A stretch of DNA of 38,200 bases from the sequence record MN850588.1; one strand, given 5' to 3'. Positions 3,646 through 17,597 of the stretch are shown here, piece after piece; positions within the stretch are counted from its first letter, which is position 1, and each line of letters opens with the position of its first letter. The position numbers and the translations under genes were made by a program. The notes beneath the pieces are model-generated. The model was given only the letters and a program-made list of their open reading frames with translations, searched no databases and was not told the DNA's origin. Source of the DNA: Escherichia phage sortregn.

Positions 3646-4464
3646 ATGGCGATCTACAAAAAAGAGGACGTTCTCGCGGCGATGCCCGGCAAATGGGAAC
3701 AGGCGCTCCTCGATCTTTGTGGCTGGGACCGCAAGGCGTTTAACGGCAATCATCAACCTTGCCCGATCTGTGGCGGGACGGACCGCTTTCGCTGGGGCCA
3801 TAAGCAACAGACGAAGAAGGCGGAGGGCTTCGGCTACTGTTCCGGCTCCTGTGGCGGCGCTCGTGATGGCATGTTTTGGTTCATGACCAGCCGATCGCAG
3901 CCGTTCAACGAGGCGATCAACGACCTGGGCGACTGGATAGGCGGACTCACCCCGGAGAAGCGGGAAACCATCGTCAAGGAGGCGCGGAAGTATGCCCGCC
4001 AGCAGGATAAGCCCGCGCAGGACTGGGAACTCACCCCGGAGGACGTGGACAAGATCATGAGCAAAGGCACGATGCGCGACGGATTCCTGTATGTTCCATG
4101 CGCTCGTCCACTGGGGGGATCCCTGGGGCCGTGGTGCAACGTGGCGAAGATCGGCTCCGACAGGTCCGTGGTGTTTGCCGCTGGTGGCCCGACGTGGGGC
4201 GCGGTAGGTCTGATCCACCCAGTGCCAGACGCTCCGGTGTATCTGGTGGCGGATCCGGTCCATGCGGTGAACGTGGCGGCGCGAGGGGAGGCGGAGGTCT
4301 GGCTTACGTTCCGGCCTATGAACGCGGTCCAGGCGTCGGCGATATATGACGGCGATCGGGAGATCCGGTTCGTCTACACTGACCCGGACGAGGTTTTCCT
4401 GTACGGCTACGAGAGGACGGGGAGGCCATGCGTCGGCGGGCATCTTGCCGGGGCGTTCGGGTAA
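3646..4464 (+). CDS. DNA primase-like protein (Zn-ribbon + Toprim-like)
   Basis: 272 aa. HQPCPICGGTDRFRW matches the primase-helicase zinc-binding motif (P4 alpha type). C-terminal VYLVADPVHAVNVAARGE is Toprim-like. GGAGGG RBS. Confidence 0.7.
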   Translation: MAIYKKEDVLAAMPGKWEQALLDLCGWDRKAFNGNHQPCPICGGTDRFRWGHKQQTKKAEGFGYCSGSCGGARDGMFWFMTSRSQPFNEAINDLGDWIGGLTPEKRETIVKEARKYARQQDKPAQDWELTPEDVDKIMSKGTMRDGFLYVPCARPLGGSLGPWCNVAKIGSDRSVVFAAGGPTWGAVGLIHPVPDAPVYLVADPVHAVNVAARGEAEVWLTFRPMNAVQASAIYDGDREIRFVYTDPDEVFLYGYERTGRPCVGGHLAGAFG

Positions 4465-4616: not shown

Positions 4617-5258
4617 ATGAAAGACGAGAAAGACACCACCACGATCGATCATGTGGACGGCATGACCGAGGCGGAACGCGCAGCGGCAGACGTGACCACT
4701 GTTAGCGGTCGCCGCTTCAACAAATCCAAGACGCCGGACGCTATCCGCCAGAAGTGGCAGACCCCGCGCTGGCTGTTCGACTGGGCCGTGAAGCGCTTCG
4801 GGCAATTCGGGATCGATGTGGCAGCAGAAAAGGCTAACGCCCTTTGTGATGTCTACCTGGACGAGAAAACGGACGCCCTCAAGGATGGCGTGGAGTGGGG
4901 AGCCGAGGGCGGGCTGGCGTGGTGTAACCCGCCATACGCGGAGCCGCTTCCGTGGATCGTGAAGGCCATCCAGCAAGCGAAGGATCGCGACGTTACGACC
5001 GTGTTTCTCCTGAACTCCGACGCGTCTACGGCGTGGTTTAAGAAGGCGCTGGACGCCGGGAGCCTGGTTATCCATATCACCAGCGACGGCGAGAACTCCG
5101 GGCGCGTGGCGTTCGTGAAGGCCGGGACCGAAGTCGCGGGCAAGAAGAACAGCAAGCCGTCCGTAATGTTCGTTATCAAGCCGAAGAAGCGCGGACCGAT
5201 CAAGACTGAATATCTGACCCAGGCGGAGATGATGTTCGAAGGCAAAACGATGATTTAA
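4617..5258 (+). CDS. dam: DNA N6-adenine methyltransferase, small phage Dam family
   Basis: 213 aa. LAWCNPPY catalytic (D/N)PPY motif; size and layout of phage Dam enzymes (T1 / Stx-phage type). AAGAAGGG RBS. Confidence 0.85.
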   Translation: MKDEKDTTTIDHVDGMTEAERAAADVTTVSGRRFNKSKTPDAIRQKWQTPRWLFDWAVKRFGQFGIDVAAEKANALCDVYLDEKTDALKDGVEWGAEGGLAWCNPPYAEPLPWIVKAIQQAKDRDVTTVFLLNSDASTAWFKKALDAGSLVIHITSDGENSGRVAFVKAGTEVAGKKNSKPSVMFVIKPKKRGPIKTEYLTQAEMMFEGKTMI

Positions 5259-12420: not shown

Positions 12421-12851
12421 CTCTCTTTCCTCATGGCTTGTTTGCATTGTAAAGCGGCGAGGGCCATCTCCGGGCCAATCTCGACGCCTGGGGGGAACCC
12501 TGTTTCCGTGGTCGCCAGCTTCGAACGATCCACCTTAAGGTCCCGTAATTGTCCGGCCCGTTCCATTTGTCCGGCGTGTCGGCAGAGATCCAGCAGCTTC
12601 TTACGATCGACGCCGGGGCAGTCCCAGAACGCCGCGAATATTTGCTCCGATGGTCGCAGGGCGCAAAAAGCATTGCGCGTTTCAACCGTCGGCAGATAAG
12701 GATCCATTCTCCCCTGTTCTATCGCCTCAATGATCGAGGGATCGGTGGAGCGGATCTTCTCCAGAATCTCCAGGCGGCGCTCCATTGCCGTCTTGCGTTT
12801 AACCGTGGCCCGAAGTGGGGCGGCAGGTTTTGAATCATCAAACAGTGACAT
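12417..12851 (-). CDS. hypothetical protein, first gene of the leftward operon
   Basis: ORF 12417-12977; ATG 12851 preferred (GGAGGG RBS). The upstream ORF part overlaps promoter-like AT-rich DNA. 144 aa. Confidence 0.65.
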   Translation of the reverse strand: MSLFDDSKPAAPLRATVKRKTAMERRLEILEKIRSTDPSIIEAIEQGRMDPYLPTVETRNAFCALRPSEQIFAAFWDCPGVDRKKLLDLCRHAGQMERAGQLRDLKVDRSKLATTETGFPPGVEIGPEMALAALQCKQAMRKER

Positions 12852-12876
12852 ATTGCCCTCCGTTGTGTGGAAATCA

Positions 12877-12904
12877 ATATTACATAACGTTACCATGATG
12901 TAAA
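12877..12904 (-). promoter_or_regulatory. sigma70-like promoter candidate for the leftward operon
   Basis: On the minus strand: TTTACA (12904-12899), 16-nt spacer, TAATAT (12882-12877). The spacer contains GGTAAC (complement of 12889-12894). Confidence 0.5.
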
Positions 12905-12975
12905 GCCCAACCGTGATAATAATTGACTTTACAGTGGTAACAAGGGCGGGTAACATTGCGACCAGTAACGCAACC
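12889..12975. repeat. GGTAAC/GTTACC hexamer cluster (candidate operators or iterons)
   Basis: GTTACC 12889-12894, GGTAAC 12936-12941 and 12949-12954, aGTAAC 12964-12969. GTAACGCAACC (12965-12975) resembles GTTACCGCAACC at 14713-14724. Confidence 0.55.
12916..12943 (-). promoter_or_regulatory. second leftward promoter candidate
   Basis: On the minus strand: TTGTTA (12943-12938), 16-nt spacer, TATTAT (12921-12916). The -35 overlaps GGTAAC 12936-12941. Confidence 0.4.
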
Positions 12976-12991
12976 ATGAGGTGATTAAACA

Positions 12992-14656
12992 GTGATTGAC
13001 TACGACGACGACAACCAGCCAGATCGCAGCGAGCAGGAGATCAGGGAGATGATCCGCCCAGAGCCGACGCCTCTCGAACCCGTCCCGGACTGGATGGGCC
13101 AGACCCCGGAGCCGACGGACGAGGAGGTGGCCCGGCAGATGGCGATCGAGGCTGAACGCGAAGCGGCAGAGCTGGAGTATTACCGATTCAACGACGACAA
13201 CCCGGACGATCACGCCTACGAGGTCGCGGTGAAGGATAACGAGGTGACGCTGGTCAAGCGCTCCGAAATGACCGAGGAGGAGCGGGCGGAGGCTTACCTG
13301 GCGAAGCAGCGCGAGAAGGACCGCAAGGCGATCGCCGACCTGCTGGCAGACGAGCCGGACCCCCTGCTGGAGGAACTGAACAAGGGCAACGAGATCAAGC
13401 CCGTTAATTACGTGATCCAGAACCTGATCCCGGAGCGCTCCGTGGGCTTCCTGGTCGGCGAGTCCGGCGCTAAGAAAACCTTTGCGGCCCTCCATATGGC
13501 CCTGTGCGTGGCGCGTGGCGTTCACTTCGGCGGCTTGCCAGTACGACAGGGATCCGTGATGTACTTCGCGCCGGAGGATGCGAACGGCGTCCGTGAGCGT
13601 TACGCGGGCTGGAAGTACACTCAGAACAAGAACGAGAACTTGCCTAATTTTTGGGTACTGGGCCAACAGGTCCCACTCCACCGCGAGGATCTTCTCCGCA
13701 AGTTCGGCGCGAGGATCAAGGACTCCGCATTTTTCCAGGCGAACCCCCTCTCCCTGATCGTGATCGATACCTACAGCGCCAACTCCGCCGGGCAGAAGGT
13801 CGGACAGACGCCAGTCAAGAAGGACGGGAAGATCGCGGAATGGGTAGGCGGGCGCGACTTCGACGAGAACGACAATAACGTGGCGGCGATCCTCATGAAG
13901 AACGCGGCAGACCTGGCGGACATGCTGGAGTGTGCCGTGATGATCATCCACCACACCGGGAAGGACACGGAGCGCGGCGGGCGCGGCGCGTCGGCTCTCA
14001 AGGCTAACGCAGGTTTTGAGGTCCTCGTGAAGAAATGCGCGAAGGACCGGGAGCTTTTCATCATTGAGCACTCGAAGGCGAAAGGCTGTGCGCTGTTACC
14101 GCCGCGAGCCATGCGCACGAAGGCGGCGAAACTCCCGCCGGACCTGGTGAAGATGAAGCGCGACGCGCTGGCCCGCATGACCGGACTCGACAACGAGGCG
14201 AAGAACAACCCGGCAGCGTGGGAGATCGGCGACAACCTGGGGACGCTGGTCGTCGTGAACAAGGTCGAGCCAGTCCCGACCGATAAGGCCGAGGAGAAGG
14301 ACGCGGGCGAGGAGAAAGGTCGCACCAAGCAGGAGGAACACGCGCTCCAGCTTTTGGCCTACGTGGTCGAGTACAACCACGATCGCGCCAGCAAGAACTA
14401 CAGGACGCCGAAACTCACAAAGGCGGCGCTCCGTGAGTGGGCGAAGAACTTCGCGGACCCGTCGCTGGATAAGCATCAATTCGCCCGCGCGTTCAAGTAC
14501 GCCACCGAAAAAGCGATGGTGATCAAAATGGCCGGGGATCAGACGCTAACCGCATCAACGGAAGCGCCCGCACTCCTGGGAGGGATCCGCGAACAGCAGC
14601 CACGATCCACGGACTGGAAACCAACCTCCGGCGGAGGTGATCTTGATGACTTTTGA
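12992..14656 (+). CDS. RepA/AAA_25-like RecA-fold replicative ATPase (putative helicase/initiator)
   Basis: 554 aa; GTG start with GAGGTG RBS. Walker A GESGAKKT, Walker B-like LIVIDTY, MIIHHTGKD motif. Acidic N-terminal extension and helical C-terminal domain. Confidence 0.85.
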   Translation: MIDYDDDNQPDRSEQEIREMIRPEPTPLEPVPDWMGQTPEPTDEEVARQMAIEAEREAAELEYYRFNDDNPDDHAYEVAVKDNEVTLVKRSEMTEEERAEAYLAKQREKDRKAIADLLADEPDPLLEELNKGNEIKPVNYVIQNLIPERSVGFLVGESGAKKTFAALHMALCVARGVHFGGLPVRQGSVMYFAPEDANGVRERYAGWKYTQNKNENLPNFWVLGQQVPLHREDLLRKFGARIKDSAFFQANPLSLIVIDTYSANSAGQKVGQTPVKKDGKIAEWVGGRDFDENDNNVAAILMKNAADLADMLECAVMIIHHTGKDTERGGRGASALKANAGFEVLVKKCAKDRELFIIEHSKAKGCALLPPRAMRTKAAKLPPDLVKMKRDALARMTGLDNEAKNNPAAWEIGDNLGTLVVVNKVEPVPTDKAEEKDAGEEKGRTKQEEHALQLLAYVVEYNHDRASKNYRTPKLTKAALREWAKNFADPSLDKHQFARAFKYATEKAMVIKMAGDQTLTASTEAPALLGGIREQQPRSTDWKPTSGGGDLDDF

Positions 14657-14670
14657 CCGGGGCGTGTGTT

Positions 14671-14811
14671 GGTAACGAGTAACACCCCCCCTTATAGGGG
14701 GGGATGTAACGTGTTACCGCAACCCACAAGGCCGAAAACATAGTTTTTTATGTGTACTGTTACCGACAAGCGACCGTAATCAAATCAATCATTTATGTGT
14801 GATTCGGTAAC
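14671..14811. repeat. GGTAAC/GTTACC hexamer cluster downstream of the RepA-like gene
   Basis: GGTAAC 14671-14676, aGTAAC 14678-14683, tGTAAC 14705-14710, GTTACC 14713-14718 and 14759-14764, GGTAAC 14806-14811. Confidence 0.55.
14685..14703. other. C7-TTATA-G7 perfect hairpin/palindrome
   Basis: CCCCCCC (14685-14691) TTATA GGGGGGG (14697-14703), bracketed by GTAAC motifs. No U-run. Confidence 0.6.
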
Positions 14812-14824
14812 GGGGAAAGTAGCG

Positions 14825-14872
14825 AATCGGTCGCGGGGAAATCGGGGGGTAAAAATCGGGGGTGACCCCCGA
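14825..14872. repeat. AATCGG(G)n direct repeats ending in a near-palindrome
   Basis: AATCGG 14825-14830, AATCGGGGGG 14840-14849, AATCGGGGG 14854-14862. TCGGGGGTGACCCCCGA 14856-14872 is palindromic apart from the centre. Confidence 0.55.
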
Positions 14873-14911
14873 CAAAATCCCCGCCAAATAATCATTGATA
14901 AGTGATGCGAA

Positions 14912-15100
14912 ATGAGCGACGATAACAACGTTATTTTATTCCCCAGACGGACACCGATCGGAGAGGTTCAACCAGTACGATCGAACGTCTGGATCGAGCG
15001 CTTCGGAATGTGGAATTACTTCCTGATGGTAGCGACAACCATCGGCGCGATCGTGGTCGGACTGGCGGCGATCGTGTTTAACATGCTGGGCCTGATGTGA
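14912..15100 (+). CDS. small membrane protein
   Basis: 62 aa with a C-terminal TM helix (YFLMVATTIGAIVVGLAAIVFNMLGL). Weak RBS. Confidence 0.5.
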   Translation: MSDDNNVILFPRRTPIGEVQPVRSNVWIERFGMWNYFLMVATTIGAIVVGLAAIVFNMLGLM

Positions 15101-15130: not shown

Positions 15131-15259
15131 ATGATGATGAATGACGAACACGGCAAGAAATCCAACGTAGCGGACGTCTCGCATATGTATGTAGGCCCGA
15201 ACCAACGCGCCTCACTGCTGGAGAAGGCGTTCGAGATGTTCAGAGCGGCGGCGTCGTGA
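15131..15259 (+). CDS. hypothetical small protein (42 aa)
   Basis: Below the ORF-track cutoff. Strong GAGGAG RBS directly upstream of ATGATGATG. Hand translated MMMNDEHGKKSNVADVSHMYVGPNQRASLLEKAFEMFRAAAS. Confidence 0.45.
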   Translation: MMMNDEHGKKSNVADVSHMYVGPNQRASLLEKAFEMFRAAAS

Positions 15260-15281
15260 TCCTGGACTCGTCCGTGGTCGA

Positions 15282-15554
15282 ATGGTCCGAAGTGGAGGCA
15301 TACCGCCCGGCAAAGTGAGGGCCGGGACCTGGGGGGATCGCCAGGCGGAGCGGCCTCCCTACTACGTGCAGATCAATAACCGCGTAGTGACCCCGGCGGA
15401 GTTCCACCGCCAGAAGCAGGAATTTATGAGGGGCGCGGTGATTGTAGTCCCACCGGACGAACCAACGTTCCCGATCGGCGAGATATGTCGCGGGATCCTG
15501 ATGATGTTCGGGCTATTCGCCCTGCTGTGGTTCGTGCTTACCTTCTTAAGATAA
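15282..15554 (+). CDS. hypothetical membrane protein
   Basis: 90-aa ORF with C-terminal TM (ILMMFGLFALLWFVLTFL). No good RBS at 15282; an internal start (MRGAVIVV, AGGAA upstream) is possible. Confidence 0.45.
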   Translation: MVRSGGIPPGKVRAGTWGDRQAERPPYYVQINNRVVTPAEFHRQKQEFMRGAVIVVPPDEPTFPIGEICRGILMMFGLFALLWFVLTFLR

Positions 15555-15619
15555 CGCTTGCATGATGTACGCCCCGGCGATATGCTGGGGCCGTTTCCAC
15601 CCACGAGAGAGATCGAACA

Positions 15620-16258
15620 ATGTCAATATTCACTTTCATTAATCGCAAACTGGGCCGTTTCAAGACGTGCCGGACCTGCAAGGATAAGCACCCTTGCGGC
15701 TTCGGGGAATGGCCTTCGATGTTCTTCATGTGCGACAAGTGCCAGAACAAGACGCTGGAGGAGCTATTCGAACCGGGACGCCTTAACCGCCTGACGATGG
15801 TCCACCAGACGGAGGAACAGATGGCAGAGTCCCGCCGCCGTCTGGGGCCGTTGATCGACAGCCTGGTGAGCCAGCAGCGCCAGAGCAAACAAACCGCAGC
15901 CCAGACCCAGGCAGCGAAGGCCGCGCAGTATCGCGACCCGCGATCGGTGGCAATGGCCCGCCAGATGGCGCACGACCCACGCCCGGCGGCTCGTGGTACG
16001 CAGCAGGATCCGATCTCGGACCCGATGCACCTCCTCAACCCGTTAAACCCGCTCTCCCCAGTGTCTCCGCTCAACCCGCTGAACGACTGGGACGACAGCA
16101 GCCACCGCCACCACGTCGCGCCAGCCATGAGCGAGCCGACGGAATGCCACACCACCAGCCACTCCTCCGGCTATGAGTCCAGCAGCAGCGACTACAGCAG
16201 CAGCAGCTACGACAGCGGGAGCGACTCCTCCAGCTACTCGTCCGGGGGCTGTGACTGA
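15620..16258 (+). CDS. Zn-ribbon protein with NPL repeats and Ser/Tyr/Asp-rich tail
   Basis: 212 aa; GAGAGAG RBS. CRTC-x17-CDKC, Q-rich middle, NPLNPLSPVSPLNPLN, and tail SSSSDYSSSSYDSGSDSSSYSSGGCD. Confidence 0.65.
   Translation: MSIFTFINRKLGRFKTCRTCKDKHPCGFGEWPSMFFMCDKCQNKTLEELFEPGRLNRLTMVHQTEEQMAESRRRLGPLIDSLVSQQRQSKQTAAQTQAAKAAQYRDPRSVAMARQMAHDPRPAARGTQQDPISDPMHLLNPLNPLSPVSPLNPLNDWDDSSHRHHVAPAMSEPTECHTTSHSSGYESSSSDYSSSSYDSGSDSSSYSSGGCD
16181..16245 (+). repeat. imperfect AGC-rich trinucleotide tract inside a CDS
   Basis: agcagcagcgactacagcagcagcagctacgacagcgggagcgactcctccagctactcgtcc encodes the Ser/Tyr/Asp tail of the 212-aa protein. Confidence 0.6.
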
Positions 16259-16554
16259 TGGCGATGGACAAGGACCGCAGGGTGGGCCGCACGAAGGCGG
16301 AAGCGCAACTCCTGAAACTCAAGCTGTACAAGGGGCCGGAGTGCAAGGTCCACGGCGGGAACTTCACCCGGTACACGTCAAACGGCGCTTGTGTGCTGTG
16401 CCGTAAGCTGGAGGCCGACACGACGAAGGGCAAGAGCCGGGGCTATATCGCCAAGAAGCGCGACACGCTGGCGTTTAATCACCCGGTTTCACCCTGGCCC
16501 ATAACCGCCGAGAATATGCACCTGTGCCCGGATCTCTCGTTCAAGCGAACTTGA
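16258..16554 (+). CDS. hypothetical Cys/His Zn-binding-like protein
   Basis: 98 aa; TGATG overlap with the upstream stop. ECKVHGGNFTRYTSNGACVLC pattern. Confidence 0.6.
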   Translation: MAMDKDRRVGRTKAEAQLLKLKLYKGPECKVHGGNFTRYTSNGACVLCRKLEADTTKGKSRGYIAKKRDTLAFNHPVSPWPITAENMHLCPDLSFKRT

Positions 16555-16576
16555 TCACGCTTCCGTAACCGCCGAT

Positions 16577-16626
16577 AATCCTCCGCGTAACCCTGTGACA
16601 CTCAGGCGATAAACGGAGGATTTTTT
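16577..16626 (+). promoter_or_regulatory. long-range hairpin pairing an anti-SD with the terS Shine-Dalgarno
   Basis: AATCCTCCG (16577-16585) can pair with CGGAGGATT (16614-16622). The latter holds the GGAGGA SD 9 nt upstream of the terS ATG. The loop is 28 nt and T6 follows. Confidence 0.4.
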
Positions 16627-16630
16627 CATC

Positions 16631-17185
16631 ATGGCAAACGAACAGAACCTTAAGAAGGGGAACCGCTTCTCCAAAGAGAACCAGCCGGAGCGACGCGGCA
16701 GGGCGAAGCAGAACCGGACGTTACTCCTCGAAGCACTCCGCAAGGTTCGGATCAAGGAGGCCACCGGGCGCAAGGTCGAGGACATCGATCCAAACACTGG
16801 CGAGGTGAAGGTGAACAGCGAAACGGGCGAGCCGATCATGGTGGACGAGTTCGTGGAGGTCCCGCTCACGGAGGACATGTTCATCCAGCGAGCGATCCAG
16901 ATGGCCCTCGTAGACGGTTCCATGATGCGCGACATCATGAGCCGATTAATCCCCTACACCAAGCCGACCAGCCCGACCTATTGCTTTGAACTGACCGGAT
17001 CCACCCCGTCCGAGCGTATCACCGAGATCGAGGACCTGGTGGCAGCGGGAGAGCTTCCGTTCGACGCGGCGGAGTCTATGGTGAAGATGATCCGCCACGG
17101 CGCGGAAGTGTTCGAAATGTCCGAAATGGTCAAACGACTGGACGCACTGGAGGCCCGACTGAATGGCGAAGCCAAAGACGAATAA
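16631..17185 (+). CDS. terS: putative terminase small subunit
   Basis: 184 aa upstream of terL, separated from it by the 144-aa HExxH gene. Basic N-terminus KKGNRFSKENQPERRGR typical of small-terminase-like DNA-binding N-termini, and coiled-coil C-terminus. Largely a positional call. Confidence 0.6.
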   Translation: MANEQNLKKGNRFSKENQPERRGRAKQNRTLLLEALRKVRIKEATGRKVEDIDPNTGEVKVNSETGEPIMVDEFVEVPLTEDMFIQRAIQMALVDGSMMRDIMSRLIPYTKPTSPTYCFELTGSTPSERITEIEDLVAAGELPFDAAESMVKMIRHGAEVFEMSEMVKRLDALEARLNGEAKDE

Positions 17186-17597
17186 ACTCCCGCCGGACAC
17201 TTACGGCAGACTGGAGGCGCTGGGCCTGAAATGGTTCACCGCCTCCCCTTACCCTTATTTCATCGTGTGCTTTGACCCGCAGGACGAGGAGATGGTGGCG
17301 AAGCTGGGCGAATGCTTCCCGGACTGGAACCGCGAGAAGCCGATCCAGCAAGGCGTCGCCATTGAGTACCACGCCGCCGACGTTAAGCTGGTGTTCGTAG
17401 GCGTCCGCCGGGGCCAATACTGGCGGACGACCATCGTCCACGAGATCGTCCACGTTAAGAACTACATCGGCGACACGCTGGGGATCGAGTGGGACGTGAA
17501 CAACGACGAGCCGGAGGCTTACTTCGTGGGCTGGCTGTTTAACATGATGGAGCAAACCTTCCAGGATCTGGGCTATGGCAAAAAATCGAAAGGATAA
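17163..17597 (+). CDS. HExxH motif protein (putative zinc metallopeptidase)
   Basis: 144 aa. IVHEIVHV followed 19 residues after the second His by EPEAY. Overlaps terS and terL by 23 nt each, in a third frame. Confidence 0.6.
   Translation: MAKPKTNKLPPDTYGRLEALGLKWFTASPYPYFIVCFDPQDEEMVAKLGECFPDWNREKPIQQGVAIEYHAADVKLVFVGVRRGQYWRTTIVHEIVHVKNYIGDTLGIEWDVNNDEPEAYFVGWLFNMMEQTFQDLGYGKKSKG

Follow-up and report, generated by a model that had tools for sequence, protein, structure and literature searches.

A candidate replication origin matched to the winged-helix tail of a RepA-type helicase in Escherichia phage sortregn

Staphylococcus aureus pathogenicity islands (SaPIs) encode Rep, an initiator-helicase with a C-terminal winged helix that loads itself without a separate loader or DnaA. 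The SaPI origin consists of 6-12 penta- or hexanucleotide iterons directly downstream of rep, at least two per side and in opposite orientations, and Rep and ori form island-specific cognate pairs (PMC9371898). Here we compare such systems with a locus in Escherichia phage sortregn, a Murrayvirus of 38,200 bp (PMC7552041) whose whole genome (MN850588.1) is the window that was analyzed. The element in question is the 255-bp intergenic region at 14657-14911, which lies between two plus-strand genes, one for a helicase upstream and one for a 62-aa protein downstream. Sequence comparison suggests, with a probability of about 0.6, that its left part (14665-14815) is a phage replication origin served by the upstream helicase as its own initiator. 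The design probably works like SaPI Rep/ori or P4 alpha/ori, built on a RepA-type helicase core and not as a homologous member of those systems. This type of origin is known, and for the phage group of sortregn it had not been described before.

P4 alpha is a helicase whose C-terminal winged helix recognizes short repeats (TGTTCACC) and which binds two clusters, ori and crr. The iteron plasmids pSC101, P1, F and R6K have repeats in the origin and related repeats in the rep promoter, where they serve autoregulation, as well as an integration host factor (IHF) site and recognition by winged helices. In RSF1010, oriV has a large inverted repeat with the hairpin priming signals ssiA and ssiB for a dedicated primase. 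In the core origin of SV40 and polyomavirus, opposed pentanucleotides surround a central palindrome, an A/T tract lies alongside, and large T antigen, in a head-to-head assembly, binds the pentanucleotides through its origin-binding domain.

In sortregn, the helicase gene (12992-14656, plus strand) encodes a 554-aa protein matching Pfam AAA_25 (E = 1.3e-25), and the first GTAAC-type site occurs 15 nt past its stop codon. Six such sites lie within 14671-14811, as an earlier sequence-only reading of this DNA had counted, with the refinement that four are exact hexamers (GGTAAC at 14671 and 14806, GTTACC at 14713 and 14759) and two are pentamers (GTAAC at 14679 and 14706). From left to right, the unit starts with a plus-strand repeat pair at 14671-14683 (GGTAAC at 14671-14676, GTAAC at 14679-14683), followed by a central hairpin, C7-TTATA-G7, at 14685-14703 and a right repeat pair at 14706-14718, of which GTAAC (14706-14710) is direct and GTTACC (14713-14718) inverted. 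Further to the right are an A/T run (AAAACATAGTTTTTTATGTGTA, 14735-14756) that is a candidate unwinding segment, a minus-strand GTTACC (14759-14764), a plus-strand IHF-like site (AATCAATCATTTA, 14783-14795) and a last plus-strand GGTAAC (14806-14811), the right edge of the module that is inherited with the helicase. The hairpin had also been recognized from the sequence and occurs only once in the genome. The IHF-like site fits the strict core consensus WATCARNNNNTTR, which has a single match on either strand of the 38.2 kb, at 14783, inside a stretch that had been singled out earlier as AT-rich.

The density of these repeats stands out from the rest of the genome. GTAAC/GTTAC sites number six in 150 bp against 0.25 expected, which is the genome maximum and was reached in none of 300 first-order Markov simulations. 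Exact GGTAAC/GTTACC hexamers occur 15 times in 38.2 kb, and seven of these are clustered on either side of the helicase gene, at 12889-12954 and 14671-14811. Individual repeats measure 5-7 bp and are present in both orientations, and direct repeats of 17-22 bp of the plasmid iteron type are not present in the region. No DnaA box (TTATNCACA, at most one mismatch) was found in 14657-14911; the 13 matches genome-wide equal the chance expectation. As single-stranded DNA, the region folds better than shuffled versions (z = -3.2), and Rfam gave no match at or above the gathering score anywhere in the genome.

Compositional marks were of little help in locating an origin. The lack of GATC had been listed among the features of the region; the sequence is indeed absent from 14639-14956, which is only the tenth-longest GATC gap and uninformative, and avoidance was ruled out as an origin signature since the intergenic DNA of sortregn is GATC-poor throughout (2.5-4.6 per kb in other intergenic DNA vs 13 per kb overall). 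The AT-rich part of the region is real but modest: it ranks around eighth among the least stable 60-mer regions (z = 3.7), which rules out AT-richness as evidence for a unique unwinding element. GC and AT skew track gene orientation and locate no origin. Genome-wide, GATC occurs 494 times in 38.2 kb, 3.6-fold above the mononucleotide expectation and 1.44-fold above the second-order Markov expectation, and is restricted to coding DNA. Sortregn has a Dam methyltransferase gene of its own (4617-5258, plus strand). CTAG is strongly depleted across the genome, with 4 observed against 33.5 expected.

For comparison, the region 3' of the helicase gene was collected from 17 lineages of two genera, Murrayvirus and Sortsnevirus, using nine deposited phages and ten Logan contigs found via helicase homologs. 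A helicase scan of viral contigs returned three loci only, two of them phages already in the set, and Logan/ENA contigs were far more productive. The analysis of these sequences covered anatomy, conservation, repeat types, their matching at two loci, the fold of the helicase tail and the exclusion of the left-neighbor protein, all by computation. Across the compared intergenic stretch, sequence identity between types is 35-50%. The plan of the left unit is constant in the 17 lineages: two or three repeats, the hairpin, two or three repeats that are mostly opposed, an A/T run, more repeats, an IHF-like site and a final repeat. Opposed repeat sets are present in all lineages, with a GC-stemmed hairpin at the center and a longer A/T run about 35 nt to the right (about 35-40 nt past the hairpin in the lineages read). 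A relaxed IHF-like site (WWTCANNNNNTTA) lies 99-100 nt after the hairpin start in 15 of the 17 lineages and is followed by one more repeat.

The hairpin itself is found about 27-40 nt past the helicase stop (28 nt in sortregn) and has a perfect stem of 7-10 bp in every one of the 17 lineages. Pyrimidines predominate in its 5' arm and purines in its 3' arm, and the loop consists of 3-7 nt of A/T-type sequence (TAT, TATAG, ATAT, TTATAT or TAAA). Stem pairs were counted outward from the loop; a MAFFT alignment of the hairpins was out of register owing to the variable loop lengths. Twelve of 13 stems are distinct, all are fully paired, and C-G/T-A alternation is seen at seven of eight stem positions. 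Together with the flanking repeats, the hairpin forms an imperfect palindrome of about 60 nt with 24-31 pairs in every lineage. The universal conservation with 12 different stems shows that, as judged from these sequences, pairing or symmetry of the hairpin is under selection. Folding is equal on the two strands (-32.9 kcal/mol for plus, -33.7 kcal/mol for minus, p = 0.19) with few G-U pairs, and the symmetry is therefore a property of the DNA and not of one transcript. A strand-specific meaning of the pyrimidine 5' arm was ruled out, as both strands of the palindrome read alike. In sortregn, the inner right copy (14706-14710) keeps the motif in direct orientation and thereby breaks pairing in the palindrome, and copies of the type-specific motif are also located outside the palindrome. 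A motif that is kept against pairing and recurs beyond the palindrome is more in keeping with a protein-binding site than with an RNA stem.

The dominant hexamer in the left 195 bp varies by lineage, with about 4-10 copies in the lineages (4-8 per 195 bp), and defines about nine types. GGTAAC is dominant in type A (sortregn, P0004 and P0005) and in type I (sortkaff, IME279 and Kc237), GGTTAC in types D (KMB41 and P0017) and H (P0013), and CGTTAC in type E (P0015 and P0016). Type B (sortsyn and IME_EC2) has CGTTAA/GTTAAC, in sortsyn in the longer form CGTTAAC, and type F (P0018 and P0019) has GCGTTA/CGTTAA. ATAACA/ATGTTA is found in type C (ST231 and P0009; ATAACAT in ST231) and AGTAAC/GTAACA in type G (P0008).

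The same motifs recur at a second locus. Each of the 15 lineages examined has two to four copies of its type-specific motif 1.7 kb upstream of the downstream array, within the 65 nt that separate the -35 hexamer of the helicase gene from its ribosome-binding site. When origin hexamers are tabulated against promoter segments, the matrix is block-diagonal by type, and the motifs of types D and E, GGTTAC and CGTTAC, are one base apart at both loci. In sortregn, the divergent helicase promoter region with its repeats was placed at 12884-12975 by promoter scan and sequence. Its copies are GTTACC at 12889, in the spacer of the leftward promoter, GGTAAC at 12936 and 12949, and AGTAAC at 12964. The predicted helicase promoter is TTTACA (12928-12933), a 17-nt spacer and TAACAT (12951-12956), such that the GGTAAC at 12936 is in the spacer and that at 12949 overlaps the -10 element. 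These copies are putative operators for autoregulation of the helicase. The origin repeat is present four times in the wider segment 12852-12991, whose duplex stability is among the four lowest in the genome (z about 4); besides an operator, this segment could be a second replication site. This divergent promoter region separates the helicase gene from a leftward operon, in which a 186-aa open reading frame probably starts at 12851 (Shine-Dalgarno (SD) sequence GGAGGG, then MSLFDD...) and not at the annotated 12977.

Alignments with 23 homologs divide the helicase into an acidic N-terminal region (residues 1-130), a RepA/AAA_25 core (about 131-400) and a C-terminal winged-helix domain. The only sequence match in the PDB is RSF1010 RepA (1g8y), which is weak (E = 0.007). 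The hypervariable C-terminal domain, residues about 446-521 (14327-14554, plus strand), is predicted to fold as helix-helix-helix-beta-hairpin, i.e., a winged helix, at a predicted local distance difference test score (pLDDT) of about 90, with DKHQFARAFKYATEK as the putative recognition helix. A homolog search with this domain alone gave zero matches, and searching plasmids with the helicase gave distant core matches only, with no plasmid replicon of such type found. The N-terminal region (12992-13390) is acidic, proline-rich and poorly conserved, and its exchange between lineages is independent of the core; no primase domain is present in it, contrary to what 'primase/helicase' annotations imply.

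The winged-helix domain falls into the same types as the repeats, and in mosaic helicases it differs where the remaining protein is almost unchanged. Between types B and C, identity is 92-97% in the core and 74-97% in the N-terminal region but 39-46% in the winged helix; the corresponding values are 91, 93 and 48% for types G and H (P0008 and P0013) and 91-94, 84-90 and 52-57% for types D and E. For the pair sortsyn (type B) and ST231 (type C), identity of the N-terminal region and core amounts to 96-100%. In each of these three independent contrasts, the promoter repeats and the downstream repeats both differ. At the DNA level, sortsyn and ST231 are 85-98% identical up to about 400 nt before the helicase stop and 45-58% identical across the winged helix; identity recovers over the conserved C-terminal tail, drops to 35-50% in the repeat block and is 95-100% from about +270. 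Three hypervariable segments therefore co-vary across conserved DNA. Lineages of the same winged-helix type share the top hexamer in seven of seven pairs, as against none of seven pairs with the same core and a different winged helix. Types B and F have a common helix, RTDFFHAFEHATK, and a CGTTAAC-type repeat despite only 27-30% identity in their N-terminal regions. The repeat type follows the winged-helix type and not the core in these sequences, and we infer that the winged helix binds the repeats. The divergently transcribed left-neighbor protein was ruled out as the specificity factor, since its identity across types is as high as 95% (G and H) and 99% (P0019 of type F and sortkaff of type I).

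Compared with the described systems, sortregn resembles SaPI Rep/ori in its predicted C-terminal winged helix, in having six short iterons right after the gene and, judged by sequence, in type-specific pairing. The motors are different, that of SaPI Rep being an AAA+ motor related to SF3/MCM and that of sortregn a RepA/AAA_25 motor of RecA fold. Furthermore, the center is AT-rich in SaPIs, whereas sortregn has a GC-stemmed hairpin with a short A/T loop, its A/T run and IHF-like site are offset to one side, and a second set of sites covers the helicase promoter. A helicase with a predicted winged helix and two separate repeat clusters is shared with P4. However, P4 alpha joins a primase and an SF3 helicase in one protein, whereas the sortregn primase is a separate gene, and the proteins are not homologous; both P4 clusters are required for replication, whereas the promoter-proximal cluster of sortregn is operator-like. 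With iteron plasmids, sortregn shares, by sequence, repeats that overlap the initiator promoter (in 15 lineages) and an IHF site in the origin. Those plasmids have direct repeats of 17-22 bp, a Rep protein with two winged helices and no helicase, and dependence on DnaA, DnaB and DnaC; sortregn has 5-7 bp repeats, no DnaA box and the helicase itself as putative binder. RSF1010 is of interest since its RepA (1g8y) is the closest helicase core with a solved structure, but it has a separate initiator, RepC, 20-bp iterons and a RepA lacking a winged helix, and no RepC-like gene was found in sortregn. The likeness to SV40 is an analogy only: SV40 is a eukaryotic system, its motor is SF3, and its origin-binding domain has an unrelated fold.

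The arrangement suggests how initiation could proceed. The winged helix of the helicase would recognize the opposed GTAAC-type repeats around the palindrome, and IHF would bend the DNA at 14783-14795, bringing the distal repeat or repeats near. The A/T run at 14735-14756 might then open, the central palindrome might extrude, or both. Hexameric helicases would load themselves without DnaA, which is proposed because the region has no DnaA box, and the phage DnaG-like primase and a host polymerase would complete the replisome. The repeat copies in the promoter would allow the helicase to repress its own synthesis. Binding that leads to helicase loading, the roles of hairpin and IHF, and origin activity itself are what we infer from the arrangement. 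The weakest step is the role of the hairpin, which may be extrusion, nucleation of melting or a priming signal (as with ssiA/ssiB in RSF1010).

Several observations weigh against an origin served by the adjoining helicase. The center between the opposed repeats is a GC-stemmed hairpin and not AT-rich as in SaPI origins, and the A/T run is short, with less stable DNA present elsewhere in the genome. The promoter-proximal cluster at 12852-12991, which is more AT-rich and also has repeats, could be the origin or a second required site. Fold matches of the C-terminal domain are generic, with no Foldseek match at E <= 0.001; no specific sequence or fold match to SaPI Rep and no specific fold match to P4 alpha were obtained. 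Over all pairs, the correlation between winged-helix identity and repeat-profile similarity is weak (Spearman rho 0.14, Mantel p = 0.09) and no better than that for the core, and the case for the winged helix rests on the categorical and mosaic contrasts for this reason. Since the winged helix adjoins the downstream repeats, part of the co-inheritance could be due to linkage. The specificity may also come from a trans-acting factor encoded beyond the examined ±1.5 kb.

A rather unlikely alternative is that the winged helix or another factor binds the repeats for regulation only, by controlling transcription read-through or by titration, and that the origin is elsewhere, e.g., at 12852-12991. 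The low stability of that promoter region (z about 4) and its identical repeats agree with such a role, read-through control is plausible as there is no terminator between the helicase gene and the downstream genes, and a conserved promoter-like block is present at the right end of the region. The downstream array is nevertheless the larger of the two, and its opposed sets, palindrome, A/T run and fixed-distance IHF site exceed what a roadblock would need. In known iteron systems, the copies in the promoter are the regulatory ones. Moreover, self-loading initiators are characterized by the fusion of a replicative helicase to a domain that binds DNA sequence-specifically (PMC9371898).

Other explanations concern the palindrome, the divergence or packaging. 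That the 60-nt palindrome acts in RNA, as an RNase III-type processing site, a stabilizing 3' hairpin or an unconventional terminator, would be in line with its 24-31 pairs in every lineage, the two-sided stem changes at seven of eight positions and its location 28 nt past the helicase stop codon. We consider this improbable: in no lineage does a U tract come after the hairpin, whichever strand is read, Rfam gave no match, and equal folding of both strands with few G-U pairs indicates symmetry at the DNA level. The type-specific motif also recurs beyond the palindrome and at the promoter 1.7 kb away, and the inner right copy in sortregn keeps the motif at the expense of pairing. It is still less probable that the region is a mosaic boundary, where recombination is favored by the conserved flanks and the variable stretch they enclose is itself without function. 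In favor of this, the divergence has sharp limits, near -400 and +240 nt from the helicase stop, with 95-100% identity outside them, and modules were replaced nearby in Kc237 and Lumpael. Yet architecture, spacing (hairpin at +27 to +40 from the stop, IHF-like site about 100 nt on) and repeat organization are kept despite sequence turnover, and the repeat type matches a separate locus. The explanation to which we give least credence is a packaging site (pac or cos) recognized by the small terminase with assistance from IHF, as at lambda cosB, which the repeats and IHF site do resemble. Three assemblies break within the region, but at three different positions, and one break is due to assembly overlap or graph branching. 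The repeats co-vary with the helicase and its promoter and not with the terminase genes 2.7 kb away, and the portal is P22-like, where headful packagers normally have pac within the small-terminase gene. Genome termini or a pac site at the locus were ruled out on the basis of the differing break positions.

Those breaks, in Sortsne, Kc237 and a Logan contig, are independent, and the IME279 record ends in a 24-bp assembly overlap. They likely result from branching of the assembly graph where conserved meets hypervariable DNA and are not physical ends.

The part of the intergenic region to the right of the putative origin has a different history. In Kc237, the repeats through the IHF-like site are kept, and the sequence and gene to the right of the last repeat are replaced. 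In IME_EC2 and sortsyn, the last 75 nt are 92% identical to sortregn and the left part has diverged. The region is therefore composite, with a left unit (about 14665-14815) that travels with the helicase and a right unit that travels with the downstream gene. The sequence-only reading had offered two interpretations for the whole region, an origin beside an initiator/helicase-type ATPase and a promoter or control element for the genes that follow. Comparative evidence favors the first for the left 160 bp or so; the second fits the last 45 bp or so through a conserved TTGAnA-17-(T/G)AnnAT block. Each idea is partly right.

In sortregn, this block reads ATCA-TTGATA (14895-14900), 17 nt and GACGAT (14918-14923), a sigma-70 promoter-like arrangement on the plus strand that, together with an SD-like GTGATG that precedes the ATG at 14912, spans 14891-14923. 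A scan of the 17 lineages found the general form, ATCA-TTGAnA-17 nt-(T/G)AnnAT, at fixed position and spacing in 14, and reading the sequences added Sortsne and P0008. Lineages of class 2 have TTGAAA-17-TACTAT or TTGATT-17-TAATAT, good sigma-70 matches, with 10 of 12 positions for TTGAAA-17-TACTAT. The sortregn version, which the genome contains once, matches at 8 of 12 positions and is below the threshold of the promoter scan. P0004 and P0008 vary in the sequence of the spacer and keep the hexamers and spacing, which favors a promoter. The block also holds SD-like sequences and start codons (ATG, TTG or GTG) of the small gene. It is plausible that 14891-14923 is the promoter and ribosome-binding block of the next gene, with a promoter and a 5' leader both fitting the data. 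A sigma-54 promoter in the right part was rejected by eye owing to unsuitable spacing.

Between the two units lies a G-run/A-tract segment at 14825-14888 that is lineage-specific. AATCGG direct repeats had been listed among the origin-like features, and they are present at 14825, 14840 and 14854 as described; the conserved iterons are the GTAAC-type sites instead. The three AATCGG(G)n copies run into the palindrome TCGGGGGTGACCCCCGA (14856-14872), which reads TCGGGGGT-G-ACCCCCGA, is unique and has perfect 8-nt arms. Both elements are present only in types A, B, G and H and absent from C, D, E and F, and types lacking AATCGG(G)n have other phased A/T-tract repeats there, e.g., TGCGGCATTTT three times in type F. 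G5 runs are rare genome-wide: AATCGGGGG (at most one mismatch) has 4 matches vs 14 expected, and two exact copies are 14 nt apart at 14838-14862. The AATCGG segment is possibly bent upstream DNA specific to some lineages. A terminator scan found nothing in 14600-14950, and no T run follows the 14685-14703 hairpin in any lineage; for the palindrome at 14856-14872, a T run follows on the minus strand only, where no gene lies upstream.

The downstream gene (14912-15100, plus strand) is the first of a cluster and encodes a 62-aa protein with a hydrophobic C-terminal segment. The protein is conserved in Murrayvirus and Sortsnevirus with divergent sequence and has no Pfam or PHROG match; counterparts in other retrieved loci are at 5014-5200 in L011 and on the minus strand in L010 (Sortsne). 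The GTG start codon common to this gene is GTT in sortregn and Lumpael, and translation must therefore start at the upstream ATG in these phages. Across the helicase locus, sortregn and Salmonella phage Lumpael are 99% identical. Just downstream there is a mosaic swap, in which about 2.3 kb of small genes (15241-17572) replace about 5.2 kb of Lumpael that include a tyrosine-recombinase-like gene.

The sortregn genome further encodes an SNF2-type helicase, a VRR-NUC nuclease, a DnaG-like zinc-ribbon primase (3646-4464), RusA, SSB, ERF, Dam and a second methyltransferase, as well as the terminase and the P22-like portal. No DNA polymerase was seen among its annotated genes, and none was reported for the related Pantoea phage MED16 (PMC8306585). 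The literature found on Murrayvirus and Sortsnevirus contains no description of an origin, promoter or regulatory site.

More distant phages show the same plan with other repeats. The helicases of Serratia phage Susuwatari and Pantoea phage MED16 are 36-39% identical to that of sortregn. In Susuwatari (2480-2660 of the retrieved locus), a polypyrimidine arm of about 30 nt, a TCTAGA center and a polypurine arm are followed by three direct copies of GTCAGGGATG, the AGGGAT core of which also occurs four times in the helicase promoter region. In MED16 (2440-2560 of the retrieved locus), GGATTAT repeats in both orientations surround an ATATCCC-TATA-GGGATAT hairpin. We tentatively suggest, though we consider it less likely than not, that an exchangeable cassette for replication specificity is common to murrayviruses, sortsneviruses and further, more distant phages whose helicase is of the AAA_25 type. 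In it, a winged-helix tail on a replicative RecA-fold helicase similar to superfamily 4 (SF4) would be combined with promoter operators and an origin of opposed mini-iterons around a pyrimidine/purine palindrome.

If this is true, bacterial viruses would provide a self-loading helicase of SF4 type whose role matches that of SaPI Rep, E1 and large T antigen among the AAA+ motors. Hairpins extruded from the palindrome would serve to nucleate loading or priming, and the nine or so specificity types would act as replicon 'immunity' groups among co-infecting phages. If the interpretation of the sortregn locus is correct, its helicase, operators and origin would form a compact replicon model across two genera and several distant phages, and the self-loading initiator-helicase design of SaPIs and P4 would also exist on a RepA/RecA-fold motor. 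The repeat types, including the pair that differs by a single base at both loci, provide material for mapping how a winged helix reads DNA. Possible uses lie in phage engineering, in phage-derived vectors and in predicting interference between co-infecting relatives.

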